Origin: a virus
Taxonomy: Duplodnaviria > Caudoviricetes
Virus record (IMG/VR): IMGVR_UViG_3300020043_002680
Span: 1-38,209 of that record
Length of the DNA: 38,209 nucleotides
Strand: one strand, 5' to 3'
Position 1 is the first letter of the stretch. The number at the start of each line of letters is the position of its first letter. Below, one piece after another: positions 850-29,335 of this stretch. A program made the position numbers and the translations under genes. The notes under the pieces were generated by a model. That model made no database searches. It was not told where the DNA came from and saw only the letters and a list, made by a program, of their open reading frames with translations.

Positions 850-1377
850 ATGAAAACGACATACACAAACAAACAACTCCAAGAAGCTATTGATGCGGCC
901 TTTCGCGAATCAAGCGGTGACGACGGATTTTGGCTTGGCATCGCCCGCGCATTCCTCGACAACCTGCCGGAGCAGACTGAGCAGGAAGTTTTGAGCCTCT
1001 CCCAACTACGCCCGCTCTCCAAAGCTGGACCAGTGCCGGAAGGGTGCGTGAGGGTGACAGGATACTGCGAAAATGGCAGTTGGTTTCTAGGCGTAGACTG
1101 TCTAATGACACAAGACACCCACTTCGCTGACATCCGCTTGCCTTCCACAGAGAAGCCTGACCCTTTGGTAACGAAATCGGATTCGTCACCAGAATGGACA
1201 CCGCAAGTCGGCGATGTCGTCAGGCTCAAGTCCGGCGGGCCGCTGATGACTGTTGGTTGTCCGATTGAGCACACCATTCCGTCAGTTTCTTGTGCATGGT
1301 TTGACGGAACCACGCTTTGCTCTACGCCAATTCCAACCGCCTGTCTCGAACTCTCAACCAAGGAGGACGCACGATGA
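850..1377 (+). CDS. accessory protein with C-terminal YodC/DUF2158-like domain
   Basis: VGDVVRLKSGGPLMTV...CAWFDG motif; paralogue of 28619-29335. Confidence 0.75.
   Translation: MKTTYTNKQLQEAIDAAFRESSGDDGFWLGIARAFLDNLPEQTEQEVLSLSQLRPLSKAGPVPEGCVRVTGYCENGSWFLGVDCLMTQDTHFADIRLPSTEKPDPLVTKSDSSPEWTPQVGDVVRLKSGGPLMTVGCPIEHTIPSVSCAWFDGTTLCSTPIPTACLELSTKEDAR
1110..1142. repeat. inverted repeat block 1 (partner 29187-29219)
   Basis: 33 bp, 1 mismatch, manual alignment. Confidence 0.85.
1185..1250. repeat. inverted repeat block 2 (partner 28746-28811)
   Basis: 66 bp, 4 mismatches. Confidence 0.9.
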
Positions 1378-1382
1378 AAACA
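1333..1382. repeat. inverted repeat block 3 spanning a gene junction (partner 28614-28663)
   Basis: 50 bp, 3 mismatches; includes SD and the ATGA overlap. Confidence 0.9.
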
Positions 1383-1706
1383 CAACTAGAACAACTGAAA
1401 CAAGAACTCCGCGAGTTCATTAAACTGTCGAAAACGGTGCCAACTGCGCCTTGGGAATACGATGACGGTAGTGACGATATGGACTTTGATGGTGGTTGGA
1501 TATACGCACCAGACAGACCACTATTAAGCAAAGGCGATACATCGCACTCTACTATGTTTTTCATCGCCCGCTCCCGCAACATCTCGCCAGCTTTGGCGGA
1601 GTGTTTGTTGAGTCAGATCGAATGGCTAGAGCGATACGCAGTCCCCGTTGAAAGCGCCAACCAACAACTCCAAGAAATTCTCAACCTTTGGGAGGCAGCA
1701 AAATGA
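1374..1706 (+). CDS. Ead/Ea22-like accessory protein
   Basis: ATGA overlap with AAGGAGG upstream; PTAPW...FIARSRNISPAL resembles Ead/Ea22; paralogue of 27941-28174. Confidence 0.65.
   Translation: MKTQLEQLKQELREFIKLSKTVPTAPWEYDDGSDDMDFDGGWIYAPDRPLLSKGDTSHSTMFFIARSRNISPALAECLLSQIEWLERYAVPVESANQQLQEILNLWEAAK
1395..1432. repeat. inverted repeat block 4 (partner 28116-28153)
   Basis: 38 bp, 1 mismatch. Confidence 0.85.
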
Positions 1707-1742
1707 CCCAAGAAGAAAAACGAATCAAGCTGGCTGAGGCTG
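1689..1742. repeat. inverted repeat block 5 spanning a gene junction (partner 27905-27958)
   Basis: 54 bp, 4 mismatches. Confidence 0.85.
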
Positions 1743-2026
1743 GTGGGTGGAAAGTGCATCCTAAATACCGATTTATTGTCATCCCTCCAAACTCTCCACA
1801 CAGTGTCCAGCCCCTGTCAACTATTCCCGACTACTTCTCGGACCTCAACGCGGTGCATGAGTTGGAGAAGGTGCTGACTGAAGAACAACGTAGATCCTAC
1901 TGTGATTTCACTTACGACATTGCGTGTAGAATACAAAAAGAGACTGGAAAGTGGAACTGGATTTCACTCCCCGCAGCCCAACGCGCCGAGGCCCTCGGCC
2001 TAACCCTCAACCTCTGGAAACAATGA
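1703..2026 (+). CDS. phage ABA-sandwich-like small protein
   Basis: ATGA overlap; IKLAEAGGW...PDYFSDLNAVHELEK...AAQRAEA; paralogue of 27627-27944. Confidence 0.65.
   Translation: MTQEEKRIKLAEAGGWKVHPKYRFIVIPPNSPHSVQPLSTIPDYFSDLNAVHELEKVLTEEQRRSYCDFTYDIACRIQKETGKWNWISLPAAQRAEALGLTLNLWKQ
1826..1870. repeat. inverted repeat block 6 (partner 27774-27818)
   Basis: 45 bp, 3 mismatches, all in one codon. Confidence 0.85.
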
Positions 2027-2082
2027 AAACCTACCCATACATGGACGGCGACCAGCTGATCGAACTCGTCGAACAGCGCGAG
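1971..2082. repeat. inverted repeat block 7 spanning a gene junction (partner 27571-27682)
   Basis: 112 bp, 5 mismatches. Confidence 0.95.
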
Positions 2083-2334
2083 TATGACGAGATTTTAAAA
2101 CTAGCTCTCCAACTGGCTAATCTTCGAGCGGAAGATATGGCGACGATTAAGGATCAAACTGTGATGATAGAAAAGTTGGCAAATGCCCTCACTTTAATCA
2201 CAGAGGAATACGAAGACCGCAGATTCCAATTTGGTGACGAATATTTGTGGCAAAAACACGAAGGCAATAACCCTTTGCCTACTGCTTTTGCAGCCTTAGA
2301 AGCCTATGAATTATTGAAAGGAGAGCAGCCATGA
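2023..2334 (+). CDS. hypothetical accessory protein
   Basis: ATGA overlap; first 20 aa (MKTYPYMDGDQLIELVEQRE) identical to 27340-27630. Confidence 0.75.
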   Translation: MKTYPYMDGDQLIELVEQREYDEILKLALQLANLRAEDMATIKDQTVMIEKLANALTLITEEYEDRRFQFGDEYLWQKHEGNNPLPTAFAALEAYELLKGEQP

Positions 2335-2618
2335 GCACATTACTTCTAGAAATCTCGCGTAATCTCCGCAAGCAGGGCGAACGACTTGGCCGTGATGGGC
2401 TTAGCCAACGCGTTAATGATCTTGTTTTAGATTTTGCCAAAAAGCATCCCAATGGAAACTACCGCGAGGCAATTATCCTAGCTGGCAGACTCCGCGCTAT
2501 TTCATTGGCGGCTCGCTCAGATTTATACTGGGGCGAAAAAACAGATTTAGGATTCCATGATGAGGCTGAATATCAATTACCTAAATTTCAGAAAAGAAAC
2601 GAGGACCAAGAATCATGA
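2331..2618 (+). CDS. hypothetical accessory protein without counterpart in the right-hand array
   Basis: ATGA overlaps at both ends; GAAAGGAG SD upstream. Confidence 0.7.
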   Translation: MSTLLLEISRNLRKQGERLGRDGLSQRVNDLVLDFAKKHPNGNYREAIILAGRLRAISLAARSDLYWGEKTDLGFHDEAEYQLPKFQKRNEDQES

Positions 2619-2878
2619 GCGACACACCAAGAACGGATGAACACATGCTTGGCGGATCGTATAGTTTTGATGGCGACTTTGCCCGCGAGCTTGAGCGCGA
2701 ACTCAACGAATCAATCAAAGCCATCCGCGATGCCGACTTGGCTTTACGCAAATGCTTAAATTACCTGATCGTTCAACCAATCTTTACACGCAATAACAGC
2801 GACATTGAACGAGAATCGGAAACAATGGAATCTGTTCATTTTGCCCTCGCTAAACTCCAACCATTCACCACACCATGA
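2615..2878 (+). CDS. MSDTPR-family accessory protein
   Basis: MSDTPRT...DFARELERELN; paralogue of 27092-27343. Confidence 0.75.
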   Translation: MSDTPRTDEHMLGGSYSFDGDFARELERELNESIKAIRDADLALRKCLNYLIVQPIFTRNNSDIERESETMESVHFALAKLQPFTTP

Positions 2879-3165
2879 GCGATACACCGAGAACAATGAA
2901 GTTGTTAGACAAGCTTCTTGACGAAGATGGCGTGTTAGAAGAAGAAAACGCGCCTTTTGTTTGGGTTAGGCTTTCTAAAGGAATTGAGCGCGAACTCAAC
3001 GCAGCACTAGCAGCCAATGCCGAGCTTCTCGAACGTCTCCAGGAATCCCGTGAGTCTCATCTGATAGCAACAGCTAAAAAGGTGCAGACGATCCAGCAGC
3101 AGGCCGTTGAAATCGACAGGCTAAAGGCTGTGCTTGCTGATATTTACTCACTCAGCCGCTCTTGA
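2875..3165 (+). CDS. MSDTPR-family accessory coiled-coil protein, chimeric
   Basis: N-half resembles 26820-27095, C-half resembles the middle of 27340-27630; 3' end overlaps the convergent gene by 22 bp. Confidence 0.7.
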   Translation: MSDTPRTMKLLDKLLDEDGVLEEENAPFVWVRLSKGIERELNAALAANAELLERLQESRESHLIATAKKVQTIQQQAVEIDRLKAVLADIYSLSRS

Positions 3166-6100
3166 ATCTTGCGGGCTTCGCGTAGCACGTTAGCACCGAC
3201 ATCGACGGCGCCAGCAGCGGGGCCAATGACAGCAGATGCGCCAGCAGCGGCAGCGGTAGAAAGCGAATCTAACGCATCTATAAATTCTTCTGAATTATCA
3301 GGACTAAAAAGCTCATCCATGTTTTTACCGCCGCGAAGTAAGTCGTTTGCCGTTTTGCTTGCAAGGTCATCGGAAGGAAATACGCGAAGGCCAAGCAATG
3401 AACGCCCCACTTTGTCAATCAATCGACCAAGCACAAATAGCCCATTTACAGGGCCAAGTGTAAGCGCAAGCGTCCACTGATCTGTGCTCCACTCGCGATC
3501 ACGATCTTCATCGTCACCTAATAGCGAAGCAATCACACCAGCCATTACCTGCGAAACAGCAGCTTGCACGATATGAGCCACAAGCGCCCGCTGAACGTCC
3601 AACGACTTGTTTTTAGACTTGCCAGTTGCCAGCTTGCGAATTGCCATTAGCTCAACCGCAAGAGCCTTGCGCTGGTCAGATACAAACATTGACATTGAAC
3701 GCATAAACGGATTACCAGAACGTTCGTAAAGAGCGCGGGCATAAACGTCGGAAGGTTGCGCCGACGTGGCAATCATCTTTTCAACACGTGCAATGGCCTT
3801 GGCATCTGCAATCTCTGGCGTCATCTGCGGGTTTTCACGCATGTATCCGCGCCGATAATAATCAAAGGAAATAGCAGCACCCAGGGCAGTCCACCCACCG
3901 TCAACCATTCCCATCGGCATCATGCCTGCTTGCATAGCAAGAATGGATTGAGATCCAGTCATGCTTGAGCCCTGCATTGCAACGCGAGATTCAGCGGAGA
4001 AACCCGATTCAATACGACGGCGGATGATGTCAGACTTCCACATTGCGGAAACTTCACTAGCAAATGCCTGCGGCTCAATAAATGCGCGAGACATTCCCAT
4101 CATGTAATTGTGAGTAGGAACGTCAGCCAAAAGAGGATTCAGCAGCGCCGGAGTTTGCTTAATAATGGGAGAAATACGAAACGCCAATCCTTTATAAGCT
4201 CGATATTGCATGAGCCAGCGCCAAAAACGCGACATATTCACAAGCTCGTTTGCATTGTTCGTGCCGTTTTTTTCAATCGTGCTGATGTCTTGTTTGAGCC
4301 GTTGCAGATAACCCTCACTCTTTTTCTGGCGGATTGCCACGGCAGTATCTTTATCCAACAAGATAGCCTTCATATCTCGCATCATTTCAGCGTGCGCCAC
4401 CCAATGAGAGACGTTTTCCCAGTGAGCCAAGAACACGGCAAGCGCGTCACTCTCCACAAGTGAAGCCGTCGTATTCACGCGGGATTTTGTAAAGCCAGCA
4501 GCTAAGCCGCTATTCATATCTGAACTGTCCAAGTCCATCACCTCTCCGCCGGCGTTCATGTTTCGTCGATAGATCGGTGAATAGTTCTTAATGCGCGGAA
4601 GTGGCGCATTAAACAGCCTACGATAAATCGGATCAATCATGCCAGCCGCATCTTGATAGCTGCCAGAAATCCACCGTCCCAGCGCTTTAGCCTCTGGCGA
4701 AAGAAACTCTTCAAGCTGTGCGAAACTGTCAGCGTCCCAGCCATCGCGCTCCATTTGCTTGCGACTTGCTTCCTGCATTGACCATAGCCACCACTGAATG
4801 CCTTGCGTCTCCGACATCGTGCGAGATGTTGGAGCGGCTCTACTAGTCACTTTCTCAATAGTCACCGTGCGCTTGCGTGCGTTAGCGGCAAACTCTTCAA
4901 GAGCGGCGTCAACATCGGCCTGTTCAAGCCCTGCCGTCTTCGCGTCCATCGTGCCGTCAGCGAGCTTTGTCAGCGTGTCGATGTCTAGCTTGATTTCCTT
5001 CTTTGTGACTTTGGAAATCATGATTCCCGAGTCTTTGAGCTTCTGCAATTCAGCGATGCCGCGAGCGTGTTGAAACTTGCTGTCAGAGTTGAAGATAACC
5101 GTTAGCGCGTCTTTTTTCTGAGACTCCACAAGACGCTTGATGTCGGTGGAAAGATTCGCCGCATTGATGATCTTACCCGCGAAGTAATCGAGAATCTTGG
5201 AGTCTTCGCCAAAGATCAATTCAAGACGTTGGAGGGTAGTCCACAGAGACTCTGACAAAACTCCACGCATACCAAGCAAAGCGCGACGCATCACGCCCTT
5301 GTTCAAATTCGTGAGGTTGTCAGCCACAGCGGCATTCAGTTCGTCGCCGGCGAGAATGGACGCTTGCCCGCTCTGGCGCATGTCCGTCAAGAATGCCTTG
5401 CGCTCTTCGTCTAGGATCTTCTTTCCAAGCTTGCCCTGCTCAATCGTCTCGTTTAGCCACAAGAAAGCAGACTCGCGGGATGCAGAGTCCTTCGTGCTCC
5501 AAACTTCAAATAGGCGAGCAATGCCCAGTTTCGTCAGCGCGTCTTGCACTTCTTCCGCAGACTCCGATTCCTCGACCTGCTTTTCTAGCGCGGCCTGCTC
5601 TTTGGCTTGGCTTGCAATGTCTAAGTCAATAAACTCGGCGGCATAGTCCACCTGTTCCGTAGCTGTGGAAAGAATCTTGCCGGAGATTCGCCCGCTTGAA
5701 TCCCGCTTTGATTGATAGCGTTCAAGCAATTTATCAACCGCCGTTCCATATTGCTCCTTGAGATGCTTTTCTAGCAAATCCTGGCCACGTTCAAGCTGGC
5801 GTTGTAAGACCTTCAGCCGTGCCGATTCGCTAGCCTTGCGTGCTAGGGTGACAAAACCACCGATCTTGCCACGGATCTCCTGCGGGAACATGGCAACAAT
5901 AGCTTCTAGCGTGATGAGGTCACGCACGAGTGATTCACGCGGCGACCAGTCCTCTTTCTGCATTGCATCGGCCTCGTCGCGCCATGCTTGCGCTTCTTGG
6001 CGTGCTTGTTCAAACGCTGCTTTTTCAACGGATTTAACTGCGGCCTCTGCTTTGGCATAATCGGCCTTAGCATTACGATGCGATTTGATGGACGATTCAA

Positions 6101-9100
6101 GCGCGGCCCACATCTCGGAGGCAGTATCAAATCCCAGGTTGTTAGCCATTACGTCTGGCATGATGCCGCCAACCGCTGGAATCGTTACCTTGTTGATTTT
6201 AACCTTCACTTCACCAGACTTAATTGCAGCTTTGATTTCAGCGGGAACCTTGGCAGACGGGAAGCTTTCGCTTGATCCATCTTTGCGCGTGATAACAACG
6301 GTCTTAATTGTCCTGCCGTTAGAATACCATTGCGGAGGAATCCAATTCAGATCGTCGTATTGATCTTTGATGTCTCGACCTTCACGCGCAGCCGTAGCTT
6401 TCGACATTAATCGCCCGTTATCGTGAAGCATTTTCTTCACAATCGGATCGTCTTCCAGCGTGCCGACGCCTTCAGAATACGCCATCAGCGTGTCTGGCGT
6501 CAGCTTGTCCATGCCCTCATTTACAAGCTCAACTTCACGCTGTGCCTGCCGCATAGCCTGTTCCTTGTCCAGACTTTTCACCGTGCGCTTTTCACTAATC
6601 GGGCGGATCTTATTCCCTTGCGGTGTCCATCGCTCGTTGCTCCATTTATCGGCGAGCTTGGCAAACTGGCGGATAACTTTGGACTTAACCTCTAACGCGC
6701 CAGCCGGGTTCTCGGCAAAGTTGCGCTCTACTTGGTCGCTGAGTTCGTTGAGGTTGCGGATGGGTGAGATACTGAATCGAATATCTGGCGATGCCTCGTT
6801 GAACCGTTTGCTAAGTGGAATGACGTTGCCAGCATCGTCGTAGGTTACTGGGTCGGCCAGTTTGATATTGTTCGCCGTATTTTTGTAGAAGTAGTTTTGA
6901 ACATCGTCCTTGCCCCACTCTCGAATATCGTTGCCATCCCAAAAAAGGTTTTCCGCTGGAACGGATTCCTTGATGATTCGATATTCATCTTCGCCAAAGC
7001 GGGACTCTCCATGGTCAACTGCGTATGTTTTTGATGGAGTAACCCAATCGCGGTTTTCCAACTTTGCGCCTTTGATGTCAATCGGGACGGCGCGGTAAAC
7101 AGTTACAAAAGCTTTTTTACCTCGTTGGATTTTATCCATAGCGGCACGGATAGCCTTAAACGCTTCCATGCCAGCTTTGTCTTGATACGAGTAATAGCGA
7201 GGGCCAACGCGAGGATCAAAGTAATCGTCAGGCTGATTATGAATGCCTCGCGCAACTTGAACGAGAGAAGCGTCTGCGTCTCCATTTCTCACTTCCTCGT
7301 CAGCCCCGGTGGGGCCAGATGGCGCTCTGTGGGCATCCCTAAAATCAGCGTGAGGCAAGTATCCCGCCGCCTTCGCCACAGCATCCACCATCTTTTGCAA
7401 CAGCGTGCGATTCTTCTCAGGGTTTTTGGCAAGCTCAAGATACTCGGCATCCTGCTCTGGAGTGACTGGCGAGATGCTAAACGCCATATTCCCAGCGTCG
7501 ATCACTGCCTGAGCTTCCTCATCAACGCCAAGCATGGATTTCACCTCGCCAAGAACTTGCCCTTCCATCTGCTTCACCTCGTCGATGCCGAGGACTTTGT
7601 TGATAAACGTATCGTATTCTTCGCCGAGCTTGCTTTCATCGCGAGCTTTAGTGATAGCGTCAACGGTGCCAAACACGCCTTTGAGGTAGGCGGTAAATGC
7701 CTTGATTGCAGCCAGAATGCTTTTTAACGCGCTGACTTCCTCTTGAGTATTAGCGCCCATAACAGACGCCTCAATAGCGCGAGAAATAGACCCAGGTTTC
7801 ATGCCAGTGGCAAGGCCTTGTCGATCACGCCCTAGCACGTCACGCATGACCATTTCCGACACGGTTTCACGCAACATGGTTTCATTGCCTTGGCCATTTG
7901 CCAACGTGCGTAGATTGTCGATGAATTGAGCTTCTTCGGCGTTCAATGCCGTCACGCCTTCAAAAGCAGGCAAAAGCGCGCGCATTGCCGTGCGTGTCTC
8001 TTGATCTGAGAACGTGCCGTTTTCTATGCCCAATCGCCACGTCGATTCAAAGTTCTCATGCAGGAATGTAAATACCTGCGGCTGCCCTTCAGCTTGCGAT
8101 TTGTAGAGATTCATCCTGCGGACGATCTCTTTAGCCCCATCAGCCACGCGCATCGGGAAGATTTCGTTCGATCCGTTAATGTGCGCGAAAATACCTTGAG
8201 TGCCCGACTTGATGCCCGCAACTTCTGCCTCTGCACGGACGGTTTCAAGAGCTTGAGGGCCAAGCTGGCGCTGTGAAAGAATAGCACCGCCAGCATCGCG
8301 CCGAGTAGCCACGACTCCGACCGCTTCAACGTCAGACGCTTGAACAGTCTCACCAGTGAATACAGTTTCAGCCTGCCTGCCTTTTTCGTAATAACCGTCA
8401 ATCACGCTTACCAGCGCATCGGCCTCTTGCTGGCTTCCTACTTGGCGAATATCGACTGCAATGCGACGAGCAGCTTCGGCTGAATCTACGGGTATGATTG
8501 TCCCATCACCAACGGCAACTTGCCAGCCCGCAGGAGAGCGCGTGACATTTACCACAAATTCAGGCGATGATGTGTCTATTAACGCCGCTGTGTTAGCTTG
8601 TTCAGATTGTAGGCTTTTAAGCCTTTCAGCAGCTTGAATGCGTTGTTCGGCCGTAGCCTTTACTTGCGCCATGTCAGCGCCTTTTGCATTAATCTTCGCC
8701 CAATCCAAACGCATAGCGTCTTCCGCTTCGCTCCATTTGCCATCGTTAGCTAGCTCGCTAATTTTTGCGGCAGATTCTGGCGAATACTGAGCAGCTATCA
8801 GCATATCAGGCGAGCGCGCAAGTTGACGACCAGCGCGAAAGTCTGACAACTGACCAGTTCCAGCGCCAACAATAGCGAGCGGCAAGATTGTCGAAATAAG
8901 CTCAGGCAAGCTTTGTGCAAACTCGCCAAGAAATCCGTTCCAGTCTGCATCCGGAATATCTTTGCTCAGTTCATTTGCCAAACTCTGAACGGCTAGCGGA
9001 ATAACTCCTTGCGCAAACTCCTCGCCTACTTCCGTAGCTGTGCCGATTGCCGCCCGTGTGGCAAACATGCCAAGCGCCCCAGTTGCGCTAAAAATTGGCT

Positions 9101-11836: not shown

Positions 11837-11839
11837 AAA

Positions 11840-18240: not shown

Positions 18241-18274
18241 AAAAAAAACGGCCCCCATTTCTGAGAGCCGTTTT
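18241..18274 (-). terminator. intrinsic terminator after the scaffold gene
   Basis: AAAACGGCTCTCA-GAAA-TGGGGGCCG followed by T8 on the minus strand. Confidence 0.75.
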
Positions 18275-18340
18275 CTTGAGGGTATTGTAGCCTAAGCCTA
18301 TTCCGTGTGCTGGCCTCATTAAAGGCACGCCCTTCTCAAA

Positions 18341-19183: not shown

Positions 19184-19188
19184 AGGAA

Positions 19189-19581: not shown

Positions 19582-19859
19582 GTCTCTTGTTCTTTAGGTT
19601 TCTCAGTCTCAGGAATGCCCTTCAGGTGCATGGTGAATAGCCACCGAAGTGGCTCTTTCTGTCCTTCTCGGAATGCTGCTTTGACTGCATCGCCACCTTG
19701 CTCAAAGGCAGGATTCAGGATGCCGCCCACGTCAGCATTCAAGCTGCGGAACACTAGCTGGAAGTCGTCTTTGTCGAAAAGTCGGAGCGTTGCTTTAAGA
19801 ACGTCTTTCTTCTCGGCGTCGCTAAGTGGTTTTAGGAGTTCTGCGGTTGCGGGTGTCAT
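19578..19859 (-). CDS. small head-module protein (Bbp19-like)
   Basis: 93 aa after the portal; LF...DFQLVF..L...AAFREGQK motif. Confidence 0.6.
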   Translation of the reverse strand: MTPATAELLKPLSDAEKKDVLKATLRLFDKDDFQLVFRSLNADVGGILNPAFEQGGDAVKAAFREGQKEPLRWLFTMHLKGIPETEKPKEQET

Positions 19860-19882
19860 GTGATGATGCGCGGCGTTGATGA

Positions 19883-21562: not shown

Positions 21563-21567
21563 ATAGT

Positions 21568-21843
21568 TTAGCGAGTAGTAGGCATTTGGAAGCCGTAGGG
21601 ATTCTGAACAGGCTTAGGCTTTGGCCTTGTGTTAATCATCACGCCCTCGCCACCAGTGCCGAGACTGCCGATTGATCCAAGCGCCGTGCTAGGCGCGAGA
21701 GGATTCGCGGGGTTGATCGTCTTTTGCAAGCCTTGCCGACGATTAGCGCCGATGAACGCCTGCTCTCCTGCGGCTGTATCTGCCCTTACTGGAGCAGGTG
21801 ACGGTGGCGGTGATTTAGGTTTATCTGGTTTTGAGCCTCCCAT
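21568..21843 (-). CDS. small proline-rich protein preceding the portal
   Basis: MGGSKPDKPKSPPPSP start, typical of the pre-portal gene in podovirus-like modules. Confidence 0.65.
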   Translation of the reverse strand: MGGSKPDKPKSPPPSPAPVRADTAAGEQAFIGANRRQGLQKTINPANPLAPSTALGSIGSLGTGGEGVMINTRPKPKPVQNPYGFQMPTTR

Positions 21844-21860
21844 AATTGCGCGATTCTCTC

Positions 21861-22187
21861 TCACTTTTGAGAAGTCGCAAGCCTTTTTATGATCCTGCCG
21901 TATGGAATCCAGTGAACCTTTCCGCCTTCAGATCGGCAAAAGCCAAGCCAACGGCGCTTATCTCTGAGCGGGTCAATGCTGACGAAGTCGTCTAGATTGC
22001 CAACGGCCAGAGTGACGAAGACGCCAAACTCCGAGTATTCGCCAAAGTCTCGTGCCGTGTCCATCGCGCAAATAAAGCATTCCGGCGATGAATAGACATA
22101 ACCCTCTCGCAAGTGGTCATTCATCATCCCGTTGAAATCCATTCCCAGATCGACGGCTATTTGATGGGCTTCTTGGAATGGTGTCAT
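21861..22187 (-). CDS. hypothetical protein
   Basis: ATGA-coupled start (MTPFQEAH...), 108 aa. Confidence 0.6.
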   Translation of the reverse strand: MTPFQEAHQIAVDLGMDFNGMMNDHLREGYVYSSPECFICAMDTARDFGEYSEFGVFVTLAVGNLDDFVSIDPLRDKRRWLGFCRSEGGKVHWIPYGRIIKRLATSQK

Positions 22188-22480
22188 CTCTGGTATCGCG
22201 GCTTGAAGTTGTGCAGGCGATATACCTGGACGGCAGATTCGCTGCATTTGAGGATTTTGGAAATGGCCCAGTTTGAATGGCTCGCCCATGCCTTGTCACT
22301 AATCTGCGGCAGCTGCTCTTTGAGTCGTGTTCGCGTGGTCTTGTCTGGGGCCCTAGGTGCTCCAATCCGTCGCCGTGCCGTGGTTACTGTGCGTTCGCAG
22401 CATCCAAGCTGCTTAGCGATTACCTCGTTTGTTTGGTTCCAGTCCGTGACGCTACTAAAGTCAATGCGGTTGTAGAGCAT
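22184..22480 (-). CDS. two-unit HTH-like DNA-binding protein
   Basis: DWNQTNEVIAKQLGCCERTVTTARRR; similar to 276-560. Confidence 0.7.
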   Translation of the reverse strand: MLYNRIDFSSVTDWNQTNEVIAKQLGCCERTVTTARRRIGAPRAPDKTTRTRLKEQLPQISDKAWASHSNWAISKILKCSESAVQVYRLHNFKPRYQR

Positions 22481-22495
22481 GTGATGATGATTTTA

Positions 22496-22636
22496 TTATT
22501 GTTCTTGTTCTATTGGCTCGCGCCTGCGTGATGAATGAGTGCGATTGCCTCGACAATATGGACAGCTTCCGTGATTCCGGCAAGTCCTATCGAATCTACG
22601 GCTTTTGCGATATGGCTTTTTGATTGTCCTGCTCAT
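22496..22636 (-). CDS. 46-aa basic Cys/His protein (not in the ORF track)
   Basis: MSRTIKKPYRKSRRFDRTCRNHGSCPYCRGNRTHSSRRREPIEQEQ; ATGA overlap with the TerL stop; fills the gap. Confidence 0.7.
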   Translation of the reverse strand: MSRTIKKPYRKSRRFDRTCRNHGSCPYCRGNRTHSSRRREPIEQEQ

Positions 22637-23934
22637 GTCTGTTGCCATTCCTGTCTCCTGCGCGGCCCTTCCGGCGAGTTGTAGCCGGGAATCAAACCGA
22701 GCCTATCAGCTTCAGCCATAGTCCTAACGCCGTCAGCGACGTGAGAGGCCCAAGTGTGAAGCGGGACATTGCGAACGACGCCGGATGATGAGTCTGGCGC
22801 TTGCTCGTATGCCTTTAAACCTTTCACCCCAGTTTCACAAGCTGGCAAGCGAAACTCAAAAGTTGGCATTAGTCCCATAACGTAGTCGATGCCTTGCCAA
22901 ACGTCGGGAATCACTGGGACAATGACTAAATTCTTGAATCCTGCCTGCATCGCATCGGACTCAAAGGTAACGCCGTTTCGCTGCGTTTGGCGTGCATCGT
23001 GCGGCAGGTAATGCTTCCCGTATTTGTAACCCTTGGCTTCCATGTGCGCGTATCGCTCTACAATCGTGAGCGGTAAGCCAATGTCACAATCAATCCAACG
23101 CCAGTGACCAAAAGCCGAGCGTTGACCATACCACACCGTTGTGTTGCGCGGCCCTCCTAAGTCCCAGAATGTATGAACCGGCGAACGTCCATCAATCGGG
23201 AACTCTCCAATCCTTCCCTCTGCTGCCGCTGCCGTCATGTATCGGCCATAGATTGCGTTCTCGTTGGCAATGTTGAAATCACAATAGAACTCCTGCCTGA
23301 TTAGCGGCTCAGACATCCCTGAACGGCGCTCCTCGTCAATCTGCTCCTCACTGATGGCCTTTGTGTCTTCCACGCTTAAGACCTGGGTGAACCATGTCGG
23401 ATTAGTTTTAACCGTCTTCAACATGTCAAAGAAGTGATTTTCTCCGCGAGGCGTCCCGTTGAACCATGCAAATCCTCCGTTCTCTGCCAAGATCGGGCGC
23501 GTGTAATCCCACGCCAGAGGATTCTGATTTTGAAACTCCGAGAACACAACGCCGTAGTAGTTACCGCCCACAACGTCCAAGTTGTCAGTGCCTAGAATCT
23601 GGATCGTTGAGCCGTTGATTAGCTCGATTCGCATATCCGTTTGATTCGGAGGCTTAGCGAGCAATTCTTTCGGGATGTGGTCGATGACGCGCATCCCATT
23701 ACTCACGTCCACGTTCAACCAGAGAGCTTTCCGGCCTAGCGCGGCAGTCGGAAAGTAATAACTGTAATTTGCCTTCGTCTCAATAGCTCGGCAAATCAGC
23801 TTCGTGAAACAGAGCTTGTCCTTTCCCGCCCTTCGATGAAACACCATGAGGCAGCGCTTATGAGTGTCCATCGCCCGCCACATTGGAAGCTGGTAATCTC
23901 GTGGCGTGAACCGATGAGGCAGTTCGATGGTCAT
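22633..23934 (-). CDS. terL: terminase large subunit
   Basis: PRDYQ, HRRAGKD Walker A, VVFSEF Walker B, GTPRGENHF, QEFYCDF, WDLG, LPHDA, SHVADG nuclease motifs. Confidence 0.92.
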   Translation of the reverse strand: MTIELPHRFTPRDYQLPMWRAMDTHKRCLMVFHRRAGKDKLCFTKLICRAIETKANYSYYFPTAALGRKALWLNVDVSNGMRVIDHIPKELLAKPPNQTDMRIELINGSTIQILGTDNLDVVGGNYYGVVFSEFQNQNPLAWDYTRPILAENGGFAWFNGTPRGENHFFDMLKTVKTNPTWFTQVLSVEDTKAISEEQIDEERRSGMSEPLIRQEFYCDFNIANENAIYGRYMTAAAAEGRIGEFPIDGRSPVHTFWDLGGPRNTTVWYGQRSAFGHWRWIDCDIGLPLTIVERYAHMEAKGYKYGKHYLPHDARQTQRNGVTFESDAMQAGFKNLVIVPVIPDVWQGIDYVMGLMPTFEFRLPACETGVKGLKAYEQAPDSSSGVVRNVPLHTWASHVADGVRTMAEADRLGLIPGYNSPEGPRRRQEWQQT

Positions 23935-24296
23935 AACTTTCTAATCACAATCTCACTCACGCCGGAATGCTCCACCTTTTCAGGCTCATTCCATCCGGTC
24001 ATGCGAGCGATGATCTCAGCGGCTCGAAGTTGTTCGGCTTTAACCTCTTCCACGCCATCGACGGCACGCCAGAGGAAAGCATAAAGCTCCTCCTTTTTGC
24101 GCTCACTTTTAGCGGCAGTCACAGCGCGGATTTCCTCAATTCTAGCCTTCATACCATTAATTACCATAAACGAAGCAGAGTGAGCGTCAGCATCTTTCGT
24201 CTTCCCAGTTGCCTCTCTCCACGCAGCGGAAGCATTGCCAGAGACAGCATAAAGCTGTGCAAATCGTTCGTGCTTAGGATTCTTTAGTGCTGGCAT
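23931..24296 (-). CDS. terS: terminase small subunit
   Basis: LKNPKHERFAQLY...GNASAAWREA N-terminal HTH and EKVEHSG C-terminus; directly upstream of terL. Confidence 0.8.
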   Translation of the reverse strand: MPALKNPKHERFAQLYAVSGNASAAWREATGKTKDADAHSASFMVINGMKARIEEIRAVTAAKSERKKEELYAFLWRAVDGVEEVKAEQLRAAEIIARMTGWNEPEKVEHSGVSEIVIRKL

Positions 24297-24297
24297 A

Positions 24298-25578
24298 TCA
24301 ATTAAAGTCTTCTCTGATTTCTTTGAAAGTAAAGGTAGGCCCTGAAAATGCCAGCGGAATTGTCCAATTGCGTGCGCCGCCTCGGTTCTTGTCACAATAC
24401 AATCTGCGCTGAGTTTCGTCTGATACGCCATCAACCTCGACTTTTGAGATAATGAACACGCTATCAGCATTCTGACCAATGGCCCGAGATTCGCGTAATT
24501 TACCGTAATCGTTTAGCTGTGAAGCTGTGAGGATGTGGCAACCGCTGCGACGTGCTGCATTCTTCATGCGTCTGGATACGCTAGAAACGATTTCTTCCCG
24601 AGTTGCGCCCTTGCGTCCCTCTTCCTCAAGAAGCTGGAGATAATCGACAACGGCTAAATCGTAGCCGCCTTGTTCGATGTCGGCCAAGATGTCTGATGCC
24701 GTAGCATTGTCGGTGTCGATCAAATCACAACCTAGGTCTGAAAGCTCACGAATTGACCGCATAAGCATATCCTGCTGACCTCGAGTCATTAGGCCATTGT
24801 AAAGCGAGGCATTATCAACGCCGCTGTCTTCGCTCAATATTCGCAAGGTCTGCTCTGTAATCGGCATTTCTAGCGAATACCACGCCACCTTAGCACCTGA
24901 TCTCAGCGCATTTCTCGCGCAGTTTTGCATGATAGCGCTTTTGCCGTCGGAAGGCAGGCCCGCAAATACAGTGACGCGGCCTTTCTGAAGTCCTCCGCAT
25001 TTCTTGTCCATCGTATCAAACCCAGTTGTGAATCCTGCTAATGCGCCCCCTTTGCTCATTCGTTCCTGTATCTCGTCCATCGTTTGATCCATTGCCGTTT
25101 TCAATGTTACCCGTGACAGTTTGCGAATTGTTGATTTTGCCACGGATTCCAGCGCTTCCTGAGCCTGCTCAATCGCGTTAGCGATGCTAATGCTTGAATC
25201 TTGGAATATGGCCAGTGCTTTGGAATGCGCTTCGATGTGGCACCGAGCAAGATACTTGTCAGTAACGATGCGCTTGTATTCGAGATAATGAGCCGGACTT
25301 GGAACGTAACAGAACAACTCTGAAAGGTAAGAGTCACCTCCGACGCGTTCCAATTCACCAAGGCTGCGAAAGTGAGAACCCAGGATGATTGGGTCAATGG
25401 GACTCCCTGAATCGTAAAGGGTAACAAGAGCGGTAAAAATACGTCTGTGCTTTTCAAGGTCAAAAGCTGAAACATTCAGGCTGTTCCTAGCCTCTCCGAT
25501 TCGATTGACTGGATCTTGAAGAAAGCATGAGAGAAGCGATGATTCAGCCTCGTGTGATACTGGCATGTTCATAAGCAT
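24298..25578 (-). CDS. dnaB: DnaB-like replicative helicase
   Basis: EAESSLL N-domain, TGF..MD...GGLQKG, GLPSDGKS, SLEM, VDYLQL, ASQLN, LRESRAIGQNAD, KNRGG. Confidence 0.92.
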   Translation of the reverse strand: MLMNMPVSHEAESSLLSCFLQDPVNRIGEARNSLNVSAFDLEKHRRIFTALVTLYDSGSPIDPIILGSHFRSLGELERVGGDSYLSELFCYVPSPAHYLEYKRIVTDKYLARCHIEAHSKALAIFQDSSISIANAIEQAQEALESVAKSTIRKLSRVTLKTAMDQTMDEIQERMSKGGALAGFTTGFDTMDKKCGGLQKGRVTVFAGLPSDGKSAIMQNCARNALRSGAKVAWYSLEMPITEQTLRILSEDSGVDNASLYNGLMTRGQQDMLMRSIRELSDLGCDLIDTDNATASDILADIEQGGYDLAVVDYLQLLEEEGRKGATREEIVSSVSRRMKNAARRSGCHILTASQLNDYGKLRESRAIGQNADSVFIISKVEVDGVSDETQRRLYCDKNRGGARNWTIPLAFSGPTFTFKEIREDFN

Positions 25579-26267
25579 GATTGAGGGCGGATTGGTTGAG
25601 CTTTCGGTTTTGGTTTCTCGTCCTCGTAGCGTTTTGAATTAAGGTAGCTGGCAGGATATGGAATGTATTGTCCTGAATCTTTAGTCCAGTCTTCAGACGT
25701 ACGTTGCCAGTCTAAAGCATTAAGAACGGTAATGAGGTCTGGTTTGATTTTGTTCCATGCTTTCAGAGCGTCTGATTTAGCGGTCTTTCTTGGATATGCT
25801 GTCCAAAATTCCTCAAAACCTTCCCAATCCGAAGGATGTCCCTTCCCTTCCTTGTTCCCTTCCCTTCCCTTCCCTTCCTCCTTGGAGTCCTCCAAGATAA
25901 TTCCAAGATCATTCTTGGAGCCTTCTTGGAATACGCTGGAAGCCTTGAGTTTACTTGGATTCGGCTTGTCCACCCTTTGATGCTTAGCAAAGTTCTTGAT
26001 CCTACCAATAGACCTTCCTTGATCATCTTTGCCCAGGTCAATCCACCCTACGCTGGAAAGGTCTTGGAGTGCTCTTGGAATCTTCGTGGAATCCTCCAAG
26101 AATGGAAAGACCTGTCCACGAATCAGCACTGGATTGGCTAGGAAGTATCCTTCATCGTCTGCCCAGTTGAGCAGAGCAATGGCAAGTAATCGCGTGAACT
26201 CAGACTTACTACACAATCCTTCGTGCATCCAAAATTCAGGCTTAATGGTTCGTATTCTCATAAGCAT
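25569..26267 (-). CDS. phage replication initiator (start at 26267 or 26261)
   Basis: RIRTIKPEFW...ADDEG N-terminus and FEEFWTAYPRK...YIPYPASYLN C-terminus; upstream of dnaB. Confidence 0.8.
   Translation of the reverse strand: MLMRIRTIKPEFWMHEGLCSKSEFTRLLAIALLNWADDEGYFLANPVLIRGQVFPFLEDSTKIPRALQDLSSVGWIDLGKDDQGRSIGRIKNFAKHQRVDKPNPSKLKASSVFQEGSKNDLGIILEDSKEEGKGREGNKEGKGHPSDWEGFEEFWTAYPRKTAKSDALKAWNKIKPDLITVLNALDWQRTSEDWTKDSGQYIPYPASYLNSKRYEDEKPKPKAQPIRPQSCL
25840..26100. repeat. iteron-like repeats, putative replication origin inside the initiator gene
   Basis: CTTGGA/TCCAAG at 25881, 25891, 25902, 25914, 25925, 25954, 26063, 26074, 26095; CCCTT tract at 25840-25880. Confidence 0.6.
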
Positions 26268-26372
26268 AAAAAACCCTCAACTCTACTCGCCATGTGGACC
26301 CCGCCTATGACGGCACGGTGAGCAGAATTGAAGGATTTTTGATTCATAGGATGTAATGCCGCAGGGGTCCAA
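26268..26372 (-). promoter_or_regulatory. structured leader/attenuator upstream of the replication initiator
   Basis: About 23-bp G-U-containing stem ending in U6; its loop is complementary to upstream segments. Confidence 0.6.
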
Positions 26373-26425
26373 TCCTGTTTATTCGGCATCTCAGTTTATC
26401 AGATTTGAGAAAATAAAAAGAACAA

Positions 26426-26815
26426 TTACCACGGAATTTCTCCGCCATCGTCTTCTAAGGGCGCGGGAGCTGCCTTTGCAACCTGCCGAGTCGGGCGAGC
26501 TTCACTGCCGTGCATTTTCCGGGTTTCATAGCTTTCGTTTGACCACTCCTTGCCGTTGCCGATGATTGGCAGCTTAGCGGCTCCGCTTTCTCGCTCCTCT
26601 TTGGTTGATGGCTCAGCGACAAAGTGCGTGTTGCCGTAGTCGTCCTCACCGTTCTTGTTGGAAATGGCCTCCAGGTTGAGATAAACCTTGCCGTTTTGGT
26701 GCGGCTTGGCGCGGCTCTTGGCAATGCGGATCACTACGCAGTCCTCGCCTTTGATGGTTGCTTTGCAGGCTCCCTGGAGTTGGAGCAGGTTGATTGAGAT
26801 GTTTAGTTTTTTCAT
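26426..26815 (-). CDS. SSB-like protein
   Basis: Beta-rich core, flexible linker and acidic-aromatic tail (LEDDGGEIPW). Confidence 0.6.
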   Translation of the reverse strand: MKKLNISINLLQLQGACKATIKGEDCVVIRIAKSRAKPHQNGKVYLNLEAISNKNGEDDYGNTHFVAEPSTKEERESGAAKLPIIGNGKEWSNESYETRKMHGSEARPTRQVAKAAPAPLEDDGGEIPW

Positions 26816-26819
26816 GGGA

Positions 26820-27095
26820 TTATTTAATGTAGGGTTCGAGTTGGGAGGATACTTCGTTGCAGAGTTTGTCGTGCGCGGTGGCGTCTGGCGCTCCGTCAGC
26901 GTAGGTTTCCGTTTCGTAATAGACTTTGCGGATGACTTTTTTCAGCTCTGCGAGTTCCGCTTTCGCTGCGTTGAGTTCGCGTTCTAAAGTTTTAGCAAGT
27001 CTTACCAAAACAAAGGGCGCGTTATCATCTTCAAGCCTTCCATCACGGTCTAAAACTTGAGTCAAGGCTTCTAGTGTTCTCGGTGTATCACTCAT
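26820..27095 (-). CDS. MSDTPR-family accessory protein
   Basis: MSDTPRT...NAPFVLVRL...ERELNAA; GAAAGGAG SD and ATGA overlap. Confidence 0.75.
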   Translation of the reverse strand: MSDTPRTLEALTQVLDRDGRLEDDNAPFVLVRLAKTLERELNAAKAELAELKKVIRKVYYETETYADGAPDATAHDKLCNEVSSQLEPYIK

Positions 27096-27343
27096 AGCTC
27101 TCCTTTCGCTGCTTTGATCACTGCTGTAGCCGCATTGAATGCCGCATCGCATTCATCGACACTTTTCCATTCTTCATCGTTGGGTGCTCCAATAACGGCT
27201 GAACAAAGCTTTAAAGCATCCACTGCTGAGTTGAGTTCGCGTTCTAGCTCGCGGGCAAAATCACAGATAGCTATTTCACCCTCGGTCATGTAAATGCCGG
27301 TAATTGGGCCAATGAAATCGTCTGATCGTGGTGTATCACTCAT
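27092..27343 (-). CDS. MSDTPR-family accessory protein
   Basis: MSDTPRS...DFARELERELN; paralogue of 2615-2878. Confidence 0.75.
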   Translation of the reverse strand: MSDTPRSDDFIGPITGIYMTEGEIAICDFARELERELNSAVDALKLCSAVIGAPNDEEWKSVDECDAAFNAATAVIKAAKGEL

Positions 27344-27630
27344 AGCTGATCTCCTTTCGCGGATTCGTAGGCGGAGAGAGCAGCAAAAGCTGTATCACCT
27401 GTCCATGAATAGTCTCGGTGCCCAGTTTCTTTAATCCATGCGATTTCTTTCAAAGCACCCGCCAGCCTATCCAACATTATAGCCTGCCTCTGAATCGTCT
27501 GAACGTCTCTGGCTGATGCGTGGAGATGTGACTCGCGGGCTTCGGCTAGTCGTTCGAGGAGTTGGTCAAGCTCGCGCTGTTCGACGAGTTCGATCAGCTG
27601 GTCGCCGTCCATGTAGGGGTATGTTTTCAT
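27340..27630 (-). CDS. hypothetical accessory protein
   Basis: MKTYPYMDGDQLIELVEQRE...TAFAAL; paralogue of 2023-2334. Confidence 0.75.
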   Translation of the reverse strand: MKTYPYMDGDQLIELVEQRELDQLLERLAEARESHLHASARDVQTIQRQAIMLDRLAGALKEIAWIKETGHRDYSWTGDTAFAALSAYESAKGDQL

Positions 27631-27682
27631 TGTTTCCAAAGTTTGAGGGTTAGTCCGAGGGCCTCGGCGCGTTGGGCTGCGG
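27571..27682. repeat. inverted repeat block 7 partner (of 1971-2082)
   Basis: 112 bp, 5 mismatches. Confidence 0.95.
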
Positions 27683-27944
27683 TGGCGCTGATGTAGGAAT
27701 CTTTACCTTTTGAACCGTCCACCATAGCATTTAGACGATCAGCATAACTCCAGAATTGAGACAATGTGAGAATCTTCTCCAACTCATGCACCGCGTTGAG
27801 GTCGTTGAAGTAGTCGGGTATCTCTTCAAAACCAATATTTGGGTGTTTTTTATGCCCCCAGCATTTACGTCCATCTAACCACGGCTCTTCTTGCGTAAAT
27901 CCAGCAGCCTCAGCCAGCTTGATTCGTTTTTGTTCTTTGGTCAT
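27627..27944 (-). CDS. phage ABA-sandwich-like small protein
   Basis: Paralogue of 1703-2026 (IPDYFNDLNAVHELEK). Confidence 0.7.
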   Translation of the reverse strand: MTKEQKRIKLAEAAGFTQEEPWLDGRKCWGHKKHPNIGFEEIPDYFNDLNAVHELEKILTLSQFWSYADRLNAMVDGSKGKDSYISATAAQRAEALGLTLKLWKQ

Positions 27945-28174
27945 TTCGATGCCTCCCAGATGGTGAGGATTTTTTCGAGCTTTTCTTGCGCGTCGCTTGG
28001 ACAATTGCAGGCTTCGTATGGATCTGCGGAAACTTCGCTTAAGCTAATTGTTTCCAGTCCTTCCACAGCCACCAGCAAACACTCCACCGTCGCTGCCGAG
28101 ACGTTCATATAAGTCTTCGACAGTTCAATGAACTCGCGGAGTTCTTGTTTCAGGTTTTCGATTTGTGTGCTCAT
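27941..28174 (-). CDS. accessory protein, shorter paralogue of 1374-1706
   Basis: LKQELREFIELSKT...ECLL...WEASK. Confidence 0.7.
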   Translation of the reverse strand: MSTQIENLKQELREFIELSKTYMNVSAATVECLLVAVEGLETISLSEVSADPYEACNCPSDAQEKLEKILTIWEASK

Positions 28175-28181
28175 CGTTTTC

Positions 28182-28622
28182 TTATGCAAAGTTTGGGTTG
28201 GTGTTGTCTCGAAGCCATTGGGCTTGGGCGGATTCAGCAGCATCTTGGGCAGCGGCATCGGGGGCATCGGGGGCATCGGCAGCATAGGCAGCATAGGCAG
28301 CAGCACGGGCAGCATCGGCGGCAGCAAGGGCAGCGGCTAACTCCTCATCGGTCGCCGCGCCGTTAACGTGACGATCAGCAACGTCGATGGCGTTGAGGCT
28401 GCGCTCGTCGGTCAGAAGGTGTTGCACCTGACGCGACGCCCAGACGGCGAACCGCCTAAGCTCAACGTCGGTCAGCACTCCTTCTCGGGTGGCTATCCAC
28501 ACCAGCCATTCGGTTCCCGCAGTTTGCCACACCTCGTTCATGTCTTTGCAGTGGGCGAGTGCCCACTCGCAACCGTCGCTACAGGCGTTGTGCTTATCGC
28601 AGAATTCTTTGATTGTTTTCAT
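28182..28622 (-). CDS. hypothetical protein with alanine-rich C-terminus (Imm5-like helical family possible)
   Basis: NACSDG..W...LRRFAVWASRQVQHLLTDERSLNAIDVA...ATDEELAAA; 9-bp tandem units at about 28252-28330. Confidence 0.7.
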   Translation of the reverse strand: MKTIKEFCDKHNACSDGCEWALAHCKDMNEVWQTAGTEWLVWIATREGVLTDVELRRFAVWASRQVQHLLTDERSLNAIDVADRHVNGAATDEELAAALAAADAARAAAYAAYAADAPDAPDAAAQDAAESAQAQWLRDNTNPNFA

Positions 28623-29335
28623 CGTGCGTCCTCCTTGGTTGAGGGTTTGAGGCAGGCGGTTGGGAACAGCTCAAGACATGAGCGATTACCATCAAACCAA
28701 TGACACCAACTGTCAGATGGATCATCTTTATCTATGCCGCGCGTCGTCATCAGCGGCCCGCCAGACTTGAGCCTGACGACATCGCCGACTTGAGGGTTCC
28801 ATTCTGGTGACATTACCAGAGGCTTGTCGGCGTAGCGCCAGCCGATGATGTCGGCAATAGAGTCCAACTTTGACCATCTGAACTGCTGCGCTGGGGCATC
28901 CGCATACCATACGTTTCCGTCAGCGAACAAGCATTGAATAATCGCCTCCCTAGCACACGGCATCGCATCCCCCGGCGTGTGCTTTGTCCAAGTCTTGCCG
29001 TGTGCCTCGAAGGTTTTGAGCTCTGGCTTGATGCGGTAGCACTCTGATCCATCGCCAAACTCAGGGTCATCAATGTCTTTCCAAGCTGGCGATGCGTCTG
29101 AACCGTAGTTATACTGTATCACCTTACCCTCCGCGTGAGCCTTCTTCAGCTCGGCGTAAGGGTCCGGCTTTTCGGCTGGCTCATCTGGCAAGCGGATGTC
29201 TGCGAAGTGGGTGTCTTGTTTAAAGTCATTCTCACTAAAACCCTGATCTTCATTCCAGAAAAGTCGCTGGCACCCTTCTGGAACTTCTTCAGCTTCAGCG
29301 ATTGGTCTTAGTTGTGATATGTTATCTGTTTTCAT
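28619..29335 (-). CDS. multi-module accessory protein with C-terminal YodC/DUF2158-like domain
   Basis: ATGA-coupled; shares blocks with 850-1377 and carries about 110 aa of extra modules (YRIKP; DIIGWRY). Confidence 0.75.
   Translation of the reverse strand: MKTDNISQLRPIAEAEEVPEGCQRLFWNEDQGFSENDFKQDTHFADIRLPDEPAEKPDPYAELKKAHAEGKVIQYNYGSDASPAWKDIDDPEFGDGSECYRIKPELKTFEAHGKTWTKHTPGDAMPCAREAIIQCLFADGNVWYADAPAQQFRWSKLDSIADIIGWRYADKPLVMSPEWNPQVGDVVRLKSGGPLMTTRGIDKDDPSDSWCHWFDGNRSCLELFPTACLKPSTKEDAR

Follow-up and report, generated by a model that had tools for sequence, protein, structure and literature searches.

In T-even phages, hypervariable segments of gp38 lie between conserved motifs, and exchanges in or near these motifs draw on a population-wide library, as far as described in PMC3157838. 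The esaG/tipC immunity arrays of Staphylococcus and Streptococcus are, in the account of PMC9484751, tandem paralogues of known function within one bacterial chromosome, with three high-similarity blocks per gene and recombination leading to new alleles and to gene gain or loss. Annealase-driven exchange at short diverged homologies is described for the mosaicism linked to Rad52-like recombinases (PMC3945230, PMC2327257), and a boundary-sequence idea for phage mosaicism is cited in PMC3029335. In the PeSL cassettes of T4-type phages, short repeats, each an intergenic promoter plus stem-loop, shuffle small non-essential genes, as outlined in PMC2839356. Pools of variants of flexible genes reassort in natural phage populations and recent domain shuffling has been reported, the cases given in PMC7468147 and PMC10684548 being whole-gene variants or domains, mostly annotated (tail fibres, lysins, polymerases). 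A 30-kb region between inverted repeats is described as invertible in cyanophages (10.64898/2026.02.14.705889).

The window analysed here, 38,209 nt in its full length, derives from a freshwater phage and has small unnamed genes in two sets, array A on the plus strand and array B on the minus strand, which are mutually inverted. On comparison with the described systems, these arrays may best be likened to gp38 and to staphylococcal esaG shuffling, sharing with the former the alternation of conserved motifs with variable segments inside one gene, and the reassortment of those segments, and with the latter the DNA-level homology blocks. However, gp38 as portrayed in PMC3157838 is a single virion receptor-binding protein with glycine-rich motifs, whereas here the shuffling concerns several unrelated, non-structural-looking small families within one operon, some blocks run across gene junctions, and modules pass from one family to another. 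Unlike the esaG/tipC arrays of PMC9484751, mostly one copy per family is present per genome and the evidence favours exchange between phages. The arrays resemble the lambdoid nin region, as presented in 10.1101/2020.10.05.325894, in their packed non-essential genes, ATGA overlaps, adjacent resolvase and position in a replication operon, but an array also lies inverted beside virion genes. While nin and Rad52-like mosaics, in these sources, are gene- or module-scale, the unit here is 25-150 bp inside genes of 100 aa, so that natural phage recombination works down to modules of this size; compared with the cases of PMC7468147 and PMC10684548, what is swapped here is a pair of inserts within an unnamed scaffold of 100 aa. 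PeSL-type cassettes were rejected, since the blocks are coding, position-specific and mutually different, not one repeated element as in PMC2839356, and promoter-like sites occur at chance in 1-3400.

Array A opens with A1 (850..1377), a multi-module gene with DUF2158 at its end, which holds blocks 1110-1142 and 1185-1250 and the start of 1333-1382. It is followed by A2 of family F2 (1374..1706), containing block 1395-1432, a mid motif at about 1560-1610 and the start of block 1689-1742, and by A3 of family F3 (1703..2026), whose helical motifs lie at blocks 1689-1742, 1826-1870 and 1971-2020 and whose two exchangeable inserts span 1743-1825 and 1871-1970. The 112-bp block 1971-2082 has its second half in the initial 60 bases of A4 (2023..2334); A5 (2331..2618) matches phrog_33658, and A6 and A7 of family F6/7 (2615..3165) have a common mid block at 2675-2707 and about 2984-3005, with A7 overlapping the end of a convergent gene of 2370 aa. 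Array B, on the minus strand, comprises B7 and B6 of family F6/7 (26820..27343), B7 adjoining a conserved 129-aa gene at 26815; B4 (27340..27630), with a start in common with A4 and a middle related to the A7 tail; B3 of family F3 (27627..27944), with inserts unrelated to those of A3; B2 (27941..28171), a short F2 allele that G001 likewise has at its A site; the Ala-rich B1b (28182..28622; phrog_18326); and B1 (28619..29335), again multi-module with DUF2158 at its end. Directly upstream of array B lies a RusA-like Holliday junction resolvase (29332..29709, minus strand; phrog_34), and further on a PD-(D/E)xK exonuclease (32238..33419) and a RecT-like single-strand annealing protein (33421..34320), both on the minus strand; all three had been listed by the initial annotation. 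At the left end, A0a and A0b (276..837, plus strand) are 97-99% identical to proteins of G008 and were not found at the corresponding site in G001, G005 and G011. G008 is a 65-kb phage otherwise unrelated to the window; it holds a single array, which includes B1b. A two-box repeat of about 70 bp (152..221, plus strand), present in one copy, also separates early genes in G008.

The initial annotation had proposed that both arrays hold the same families in the same order, with seven near-identical DNA blocks alternating with unrelated segments. The order holds overall, except that A5 is without counterpart in array B and that B1b is an extra gene of array B. All seven blocks were recovered, starting at 1110, 1185, 1333, 1395, 1689, 1826 and 1971 in array A and at 29187, 28746, 28614, 28116, 27905, 27774 and 27571 in array B, with 1, 4, 3, 1, 4, 3 and 5 mismatches, respectively, and with self-BLAST scores of 56-182 bits against a control best of 31.9 bits (array A versus 20 resampled genomes). 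Four of the six inter-block segments score at the level of shuffled controls (z -0.4 to 0.4), whereas the other two retain residual similarity (z 2.9 and 3.8), and in two of the four non-aligning segments the difference is mostly one of length (42 vs 375 bp and 12 vs 460 bp). No insert is common to A and B. Further common pieces lie at 2675-2707, 2875-3005 (75%) and 2280-2335, and one match is out of order, the A7 tail (3025-3104) resembling the middle of B4 (27561-27482) at 72%. In four of the seven blocks, A and B are mutually the nearest sampled versions, a closeness that exchange between phages alone would not call for.

The blocks are also alike at silent sites. Between the window and G005, four-fold sites of the F3 motifs are identical at 19/20 and 18/21 positions, compared with 377/908 in core genes; the corresponding values are 17/19 versus 38/111 in DnaB for L057, and 14/19 versus 20/83 in comparison genes for L056. 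The excess is absent or weak for L060 (9/17 vs 350/949 in core genes) and L078 (6/15 vs 32/91). Over all F3 pairs, four-fold identity ranges from 0.46 to 0.62, while 0.28-0.29 is expected from the inserts' own codon use, and the block proline codon is CCC in 58 of 79 instances, against 23 of 210 insert prolines and 0 of 14 in capsid genes. Capsid genes likewise favour C-ending codons for Asp, Phe, Asn and Tyr, so conservation at two-fold sites may partly be codon preference. Since silent sites of the blocks are alike while core genes are saturated, protein selection alone is insufficient; the anchoring DNA stays alike across such phages, and the check on synonymous divergence came out in favour of conservation beyond protein selection, apart from the two phage pairs with little or no excess.

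Relatives have different inserts between the same blocks, as had been predicted for exchange points of sub-gene modules, and these inserts are not invariant but reassort. At the DNA level, the F3 loci were the best 80 of 381 by protein similarity, a choice that favours close gene pools; 79 of 88 genes could be segmented, giving 60 alleles per insert. Only 4 of the 30 pairs with insert 1 in common also share insert 2, and only 4 of the 46 pairs with insert 2 in common share insert 1, the non-shared partner inserts being at the shuffled level (0.44 and 0.36 vs 0.42). Some linkage is left, with four co-shared pairs against 0.45 expected if unlinked. At the protein level, 176 of 196 proteins were segmented into 167 insert combinations; insert 2 is shared in 10/413 pairs that share insert 1, and the converse holds for 10/303. 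Closed allele cycles are absent from the 79-gene DNA set and appear only in this larger protein set, in which seven independent cycles were found, among them two four-way squares. F3 inserts reassort almost freely among the 176 members, conserved motifs alternating with variable segments within single genes. Reassortment in F2 was seen among 17 genes (1/5 and 1/7 pairs), the halves of F6/7 are recombined too, and some loci carry tandem F3 pairs. In P0037, which comes from a different genome, insert 1 is of A type and insert 2 of B type. In addition, contigs from four independent runs (X1-X4), which cover parts of both arrays without the region of the 2370-aa gene, depart from the window and return to it at the edges of blocks (27682/27774, 27820/27901, 27961/28113 and 1750/1844).

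We consider it likely that these patterns reflect population-wide shuffling below the gene level, by general homologous recombination inside the 30-110 bp blocks of several accessory families of small proteins, all very large. The crossovers would fall within the blocks and be made by host enzymes or by phage annealases (RecT or Sak4 type), and repeated exchange would keep the blocks alike as DNA. Where a block spans an SD/ATGA junction, whole genes could come and go and still be translationally coupled. The arrays would then belong to a nin-like accessory region. The RecT-like protein and the PD-(D/E)xK exonuclease of the window are candidate enzymes for the exchange, the latter as a possible partner of the annealase. 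RecT matches occur in 5 of 13 carriers, AAA_24/Sak4-type proteins in five others and neither in three, which counts against this reading; ERF is found in none of the 13. The expectation that neither a reverse transcriptase nor a site-specific recombinase takes part agrees with the gene content: PF00078 is present in 0/13 carriers and a reverse transcriptase in none of the 50 window proteins, which argues against a diversity-generating retroelement, and no serine or tyrosine recombinase family is found in those 50 proteins, in a record that may lack a few kb, which speaks against shufflon- or invertase-type inversion.

A stronger version, which we regard as unlikely, would make the blocks selected crossover sites marked by a common CTCAAC, the inverted array an in-genome donor as in antigenic variation, and the whole a combinatorial counter-defence or host-takeover library of Verrucomicrobiota phages. 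Were it true, thousands of specificities would arise from a constant helical scaffold with two inserts that can be swapped.

Somewhat less probable is a dedicated in-genome system, in which the two arrays swap modules through gene conversion or a double crossover, or in which the intervening 24 kb is inverted, with one array acting as a reservoir. For blocks 1110, 1333, 1395 and 1971, A and B are closer to each other than to any sampled version (2, 2, 11 and 1 versions, which are small samples), and in the first 50 bp of block 1971 they differ by 3 mismatches where 42 sampled versions show at least 4; Rad52-like annealases recombine 800-bp inverted repeats within a phage genome in the experiments covered by PMC3945230, and the P0037 combination would also fit. 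However, blocks 1185, 1689 and 1826 are closer to other phages, and an array is found at site A only in G001, G005 and G011, only after RusA (site B) in G013, and once in G008. A single F3 copy occurs in 8 of the 10 other records searched and two in 2 of 10, both on one strand, while the two copies of the window lie 26 kb apart; tandem paralogues of esaG type within one genome were rejected on these counts. Because close relatives carry one array and A and B have no common insert, a dedicated two-array system is unsupported. The pairing of inverted arrays does not represent a conserved device, and the earlier proposal of swapping between them found no support beyond a hint of exchange between A and B. 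Under population-wide shuffling, the second array is likely a by-product of module exchange. In this phage group the array lies beside the 2370-aa virion gene (site A) or follows RusA in the replication operon (site B, comparable to a lambdoid nin region), and the window genome probably combines a body of A type with a B-type segment of RecT, RusA and array. The window RecT is 63% like that of G013 and 25-27% like those of G001, G005 and G011. A search of viral contigs for relatives of RusA yielded only three loci.

It is improbable that the blocks are conserved because they themselves function as DNA or RNA, for instance as a recombination-stimulating site, a binding site or an RNA structure, with shuffling secondary. 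CTCAAC occurs six times in A and five times in B (2.0-2.6 per kb, compared with 0.43 elsewhere) and is used by 9/11 Leu-Asn pairs in the arrays against 3/33 in core genes, with one copy in another frame. However, the blocks are otherwise dissimilar to one another, an RNA structure in the mid-gene block is unsupported (-1.66 kcal/mol, compensatory change in 0/6 pairs), and promoter-like sites are at chance (2 vs 2.6), promoters and terminators in 1-3400 being near chance. Homogenisation together with the C-ending codon preference can yield the hexamer.

An assembly chimera, in which common blocks led to sequence of a co-occurring phage being built in as one array or as the left end, seems more doubtful still. 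Over bases 1-1020 the window shares 93-96% identity with the unrelated G008, the tail-fibre-like genes beyond array A in G001 are missing where the contig ends, and the record is linear and known from one contig. Against this, in G001 and G011 the sequence passes unbroken from A7 to the 2370-aa gene, X1 bridges the B7 junction (26745-26967), X2 joins RusA to a B1 module, and the evidence for reassortment is independent of the window contig. A mis-join could be confined to the left end, namely the first 850 bases or about 1-1020, and such blocks are places where metagenome assemblers can mis-join phages.

Least probable, and already largely refuted, is protein selection only on an old duplication with conserved helices and fast-evolving loops, recombination having no special role: the blocks do coincide with helices of a confident predicted model and two inter-block segments keep residual similarity, but rate differences cannot be the source of near-identical inserts beside unrelated neighbours in both directions and of closed cycles, nor does this reading fit the conserved silent sites, such as CCC at the block proline.

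The blocks code for conserved motifs in small phage proteins that are widespread but unnamed. The literature searched, which covered few subscription papers, did not describe these families or their shuffling; A3 had no match in 50,697 records of cultured and GenBank phages, and among 59 F3 and 16 other array proteins no Pfam model scored above cut-off for the array families except DUF2158 (A1/B1). Family F3 has at least 7,995 clusters, making it a family of no fewer than about 8,000 proteins, unnamed and each with two exchangeable inserts. Its blocks map onto helices at residues 3-13, 48-55 and 91-101 of the predicted model (pLDDT 94.5). Atlas feature scores reached 0.91 for NinX (on 24% of members) and 0.89 for ABA_S (on 22%), whereas PF10765 (P22 NinX) and PF18066 (Phage ABA sandwich) match 0/59 members at E ≤ 1; the NinX lead may be a further tie to the lambdoid nin region. 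A PDB sequence search gave no match below E 0.14, while the fold search found as its best PDB match the middling 1R7L (Z 6.4, rmsd 3.5, 85 aligned), a structure that we take to underlie PF18066; the viral models matched are uncharacterised proteins. With the F3 scaffold it can be asked directly if selection, for example against host defences, favours such diversity or if it arises neutrally as a by-product of annealase activity. For F2 the leads are weak, namely P22 Y8K6 and Ead/Ea22 (PF13935), the latter without a Pfam match but with Atlas feature scores of 0.81-0.86 and TM 0.56-0.62, and one F2 relative has a below-threshold match to Tad8 (E 0.0045), a lead only.

The seven DNA blocks that the initial annotation described as common to the inverted arrays A (850-3165, + strand) and B (26820-29335, - strand) were all recovered, with 1, 4, 3, 1, 4, 3 and 5 mismatches, and their matches of 56-182 bits are far beyond chance, 20 resampled genomes giving at most 31.9 bits. 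The segments between them, said to be largely unrelated, lie at the shuffled level in four of six cases, whereas two retain weak similarity. The gene order, said to be the same, is mostly common to both arrays, except for one additional gene per array and one module out of order, in which the A7 tail matches the middle of B4 (72%). B1b contains an Ala-rich stretch (28235-28340) whose length differs from one relative to another (146 aa in the window, 200 aa in phage G008, 216 aa at locus L056).

The blocks are motifs of protein families. F3, the family of A3 and B3 with three motifs around two inserts, was found at 381 viral loci, of which the best 80 by protein similarity were used here, and comprises at least 7,995 protein clusters (of 7,996 scored), with no Pfam match for 59 members and no match among 50,697 GenBank phages. 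Its predicted structure is confident (pLDDT 94.5), with the three blocks on helices 3-13, 48-55 and 91-101, and the leads to NinX and an ABA-sandwich were weak. No paper on F3, F2 (A2/B2) or F6/7 (A6, A7, B6 and B7) was found in the literature searched.

Sub-gene shuffling of these large unnamed phage families is real and population-wide, and its mechanism is of a known type. Splitting F3 genes into insert 1 and insert 2 with motif patterns segmented 79 of 88 distinct genes (nine were missed by the patterns), with 60 alleles per insert at 75% identity. Insert 2 was common to 4 of 30 pairs with the same insert 1, insert 1 to 4 of 46 pairs with the same insert 2, and partner inserts not in common were as unlike as shuffled DNA. 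Residual linkage was observed (four co-shared pairs versus 0.45 expected), and these 79 genes contained no closed allele cycle. With the 120 homologues listed added, 176 of 196 proteins were segmented, yielding at 65% identity 103 alleles of insert 1, 111 of insert 2 and 167 combinations, with co-sharing in 10 of 413 and 10 of 303 pairs sharing insert 1 and insert 2, respectively, and seven allele cycles, including two four-way squares. The exact second inserts of A3 and B3 also occur behind another insert 1, in proteins P0065 and P0092, respectively. F2 resembles F3 (1/5 and 1/7 pairs co-shared; 17 genes), as does F6/7, with gene halves recombined (16 genes), and modules move between families, the B7 tail lying inside an F2 gene of locus L128. 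The check set beforehand, whether the blocks flank changed inserts in relatives, came out in favour of exchange between related phages. In four freshwater or aquatic metagenome runs (X1-X4), which did not include the window genome itself, block edges are the points where contigs depart from the window and return to it; such short joints may stem from other organisms, here the related phages themselves. At locus L059 (3008-3678), two F3 genes in tandem have insert 2 in common but differ in insert 1, a swap example within one genome. At L042 (3672-4001), an F2 protein matches Tad8, a family of Thoeris inhibitors, below threshold (E 0.0045, 17 bits versus a cut-off of 27).

A dedicated two-array system, as first proposed, was not upheld, the layout not being conserved. 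Phages G001, G005 and G011 carry a single array at site A, beside the 2370-aa virion gene, and G013, which has the same gene set, carries one after RusA with one F3 gene. Most core proteins of G001 (68% complete, both sites covered) are 85-96% identical to those of the window; in G001 and G011 the array converges on the 2370-aa gene with inserts differing from the window's, and at site B the nuclease gene directly adjoins the 129-aa gene. Among 10 further records, eight have one F3 gene and two have two, both on one strand. The window RecT shares 63% identity with that of G013 and 25-27% with its counterparts in G001, G005 and G011. The RusA type of the window is present in G013 and absent from G001 and G011; the window would thus unite a body of A type and a replication segment of B type. 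Site B is natural, since the B7 junction is spanned by an X1 contig (26745-26967) and the RusA end is linked in an X2 contig to a B1 module via 372 other letters. The inverted pair of arrays is likely incidental.

A and B are mutually nearest among the sampled versions in four blocks, other phages being as close or closer in three, and share no insert; this may reflect either conversion between A and B from time to time or the drawing of both from a single local gene pool. The left end (1-1020) has 93-96% identity to L029 3400-7300 of G008, a 65-kb phage without match to the virion proteins of the window. It would be a mis-join or else a natural import, made recently through the array; the population-level conclusions are independent of this end. 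A two-box repeat of ~70 bp occurs once in this left end (152-221) and six times in the G008 stretch examined, where one gene between two repeats is missing from the window left end.

Protein selection alone was weighed at silent sites. Between the A and B blocks, 51/58 four-fold and 54/55 two-fold sites are kept, figures inflated by the blocks having been picked for likeness. A fairer test took motifs as defined by the family, in phage pairs whose core genes could be compared as well, and four-fold identity to the window was higher in motifs than in core genes for G005 (19/20 and 18/21 versus 377/908), L057 (17/19 versus 38/111 in DnaB), L056 (14/19 versus 20/83) and L107 (15/18 versus 127/330), with little excess for L060 (9/17 versus 350/949) and L078 (6/15 versus 32/91). 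Across all pairs of the 79 genes, the three F3 motifs reached four-fold identities of 0.46, 0.62 and 0.49, where the codon use of the inserts predicts 0.28-0.29. The C-ending preference at two-fold sites is also found in capsid genes; CCC encodes proline in 58/79 cases in the block versus 0/14 in capsid genes. Hence, protein selection by itself does not suffice to explain the blocks. As causes of the silent-site conservation, neither RNA structure nor a promoter excess was found. One hexamer, CTCAAC, is found repeatedly in the blocks of several gene families (1353, 1680, 1844, 2006, 2702 and 2995 in array A; 28643, 28397, 27800, 27235 and 26975 in array B), roughly five times as densely as in the remainder of the genome.

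Among 13 near-complete carriers, window included, five match RecT, five others AAA_24 (Sak4-type) and three neither; none matches ERF or a reverse transcriptase, the latter in line with the initial proposal, and a retroelement was rejected, as were an invertase system and the PeSL promoter and stem-loop cassettes. No single dedicated enzyme accompanies the array. General recombination would be the likely engine of module exchange, because Rad52-like phage recombinases work on short, diverged homologies (PMC3945230, PMC2327257). The array resembles T-even gp38 in exchange at conserved motifs separating hypervariable segments (PMC3157838) and staphylococcal esaG arrays in having three homology blocks (PMC9484751), and its context is nin-like (10.1101/2020.10.05.325894); it belongs to none of these families.

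The record is linear (38,209 bases, completeness estimate 99%) and encodes podovirus-type head and tail proteins, the 2370-aa protein, an O-like initiator, DnaB, an SNF2-type helicase, a methylase, a PD-(D/E)xK exonuclease, a RecT-like protein and a RusA-like resolvase. Its host is likely a member of Verrucomicrobia, since three of four prokaryote genomes with an F3 relative bear that label. The contig is probably a few kb short, the 99% estimate notwithstanding, because its ends (38052-38209, 1-275) lack the tail-fibre-like genes that in G001 (L009 4647-7540) separate array A from the metallophosphoesterase gene. The core genes are mosaic too (24298-26267): against G001 and G011, four-fold sites are kept at 0.86-0.97 in DnaB and the O-like gene and at 0.34-0.60 in portal, terminase and helicase, and the N-terminal half of the G011 O-like protein differs from the window's. 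In the 2370-aa protein, the C-terminal 400 residues (3147-4346) are 76-98% identical in relatives, the rest being far more diverged. Two long same-strand overlapping frames surround a gene, probably for a cytosine methylase, that lies immediately upstream of the initiator gene at L132 4675-5786 (G011) and L060 6051-7013.
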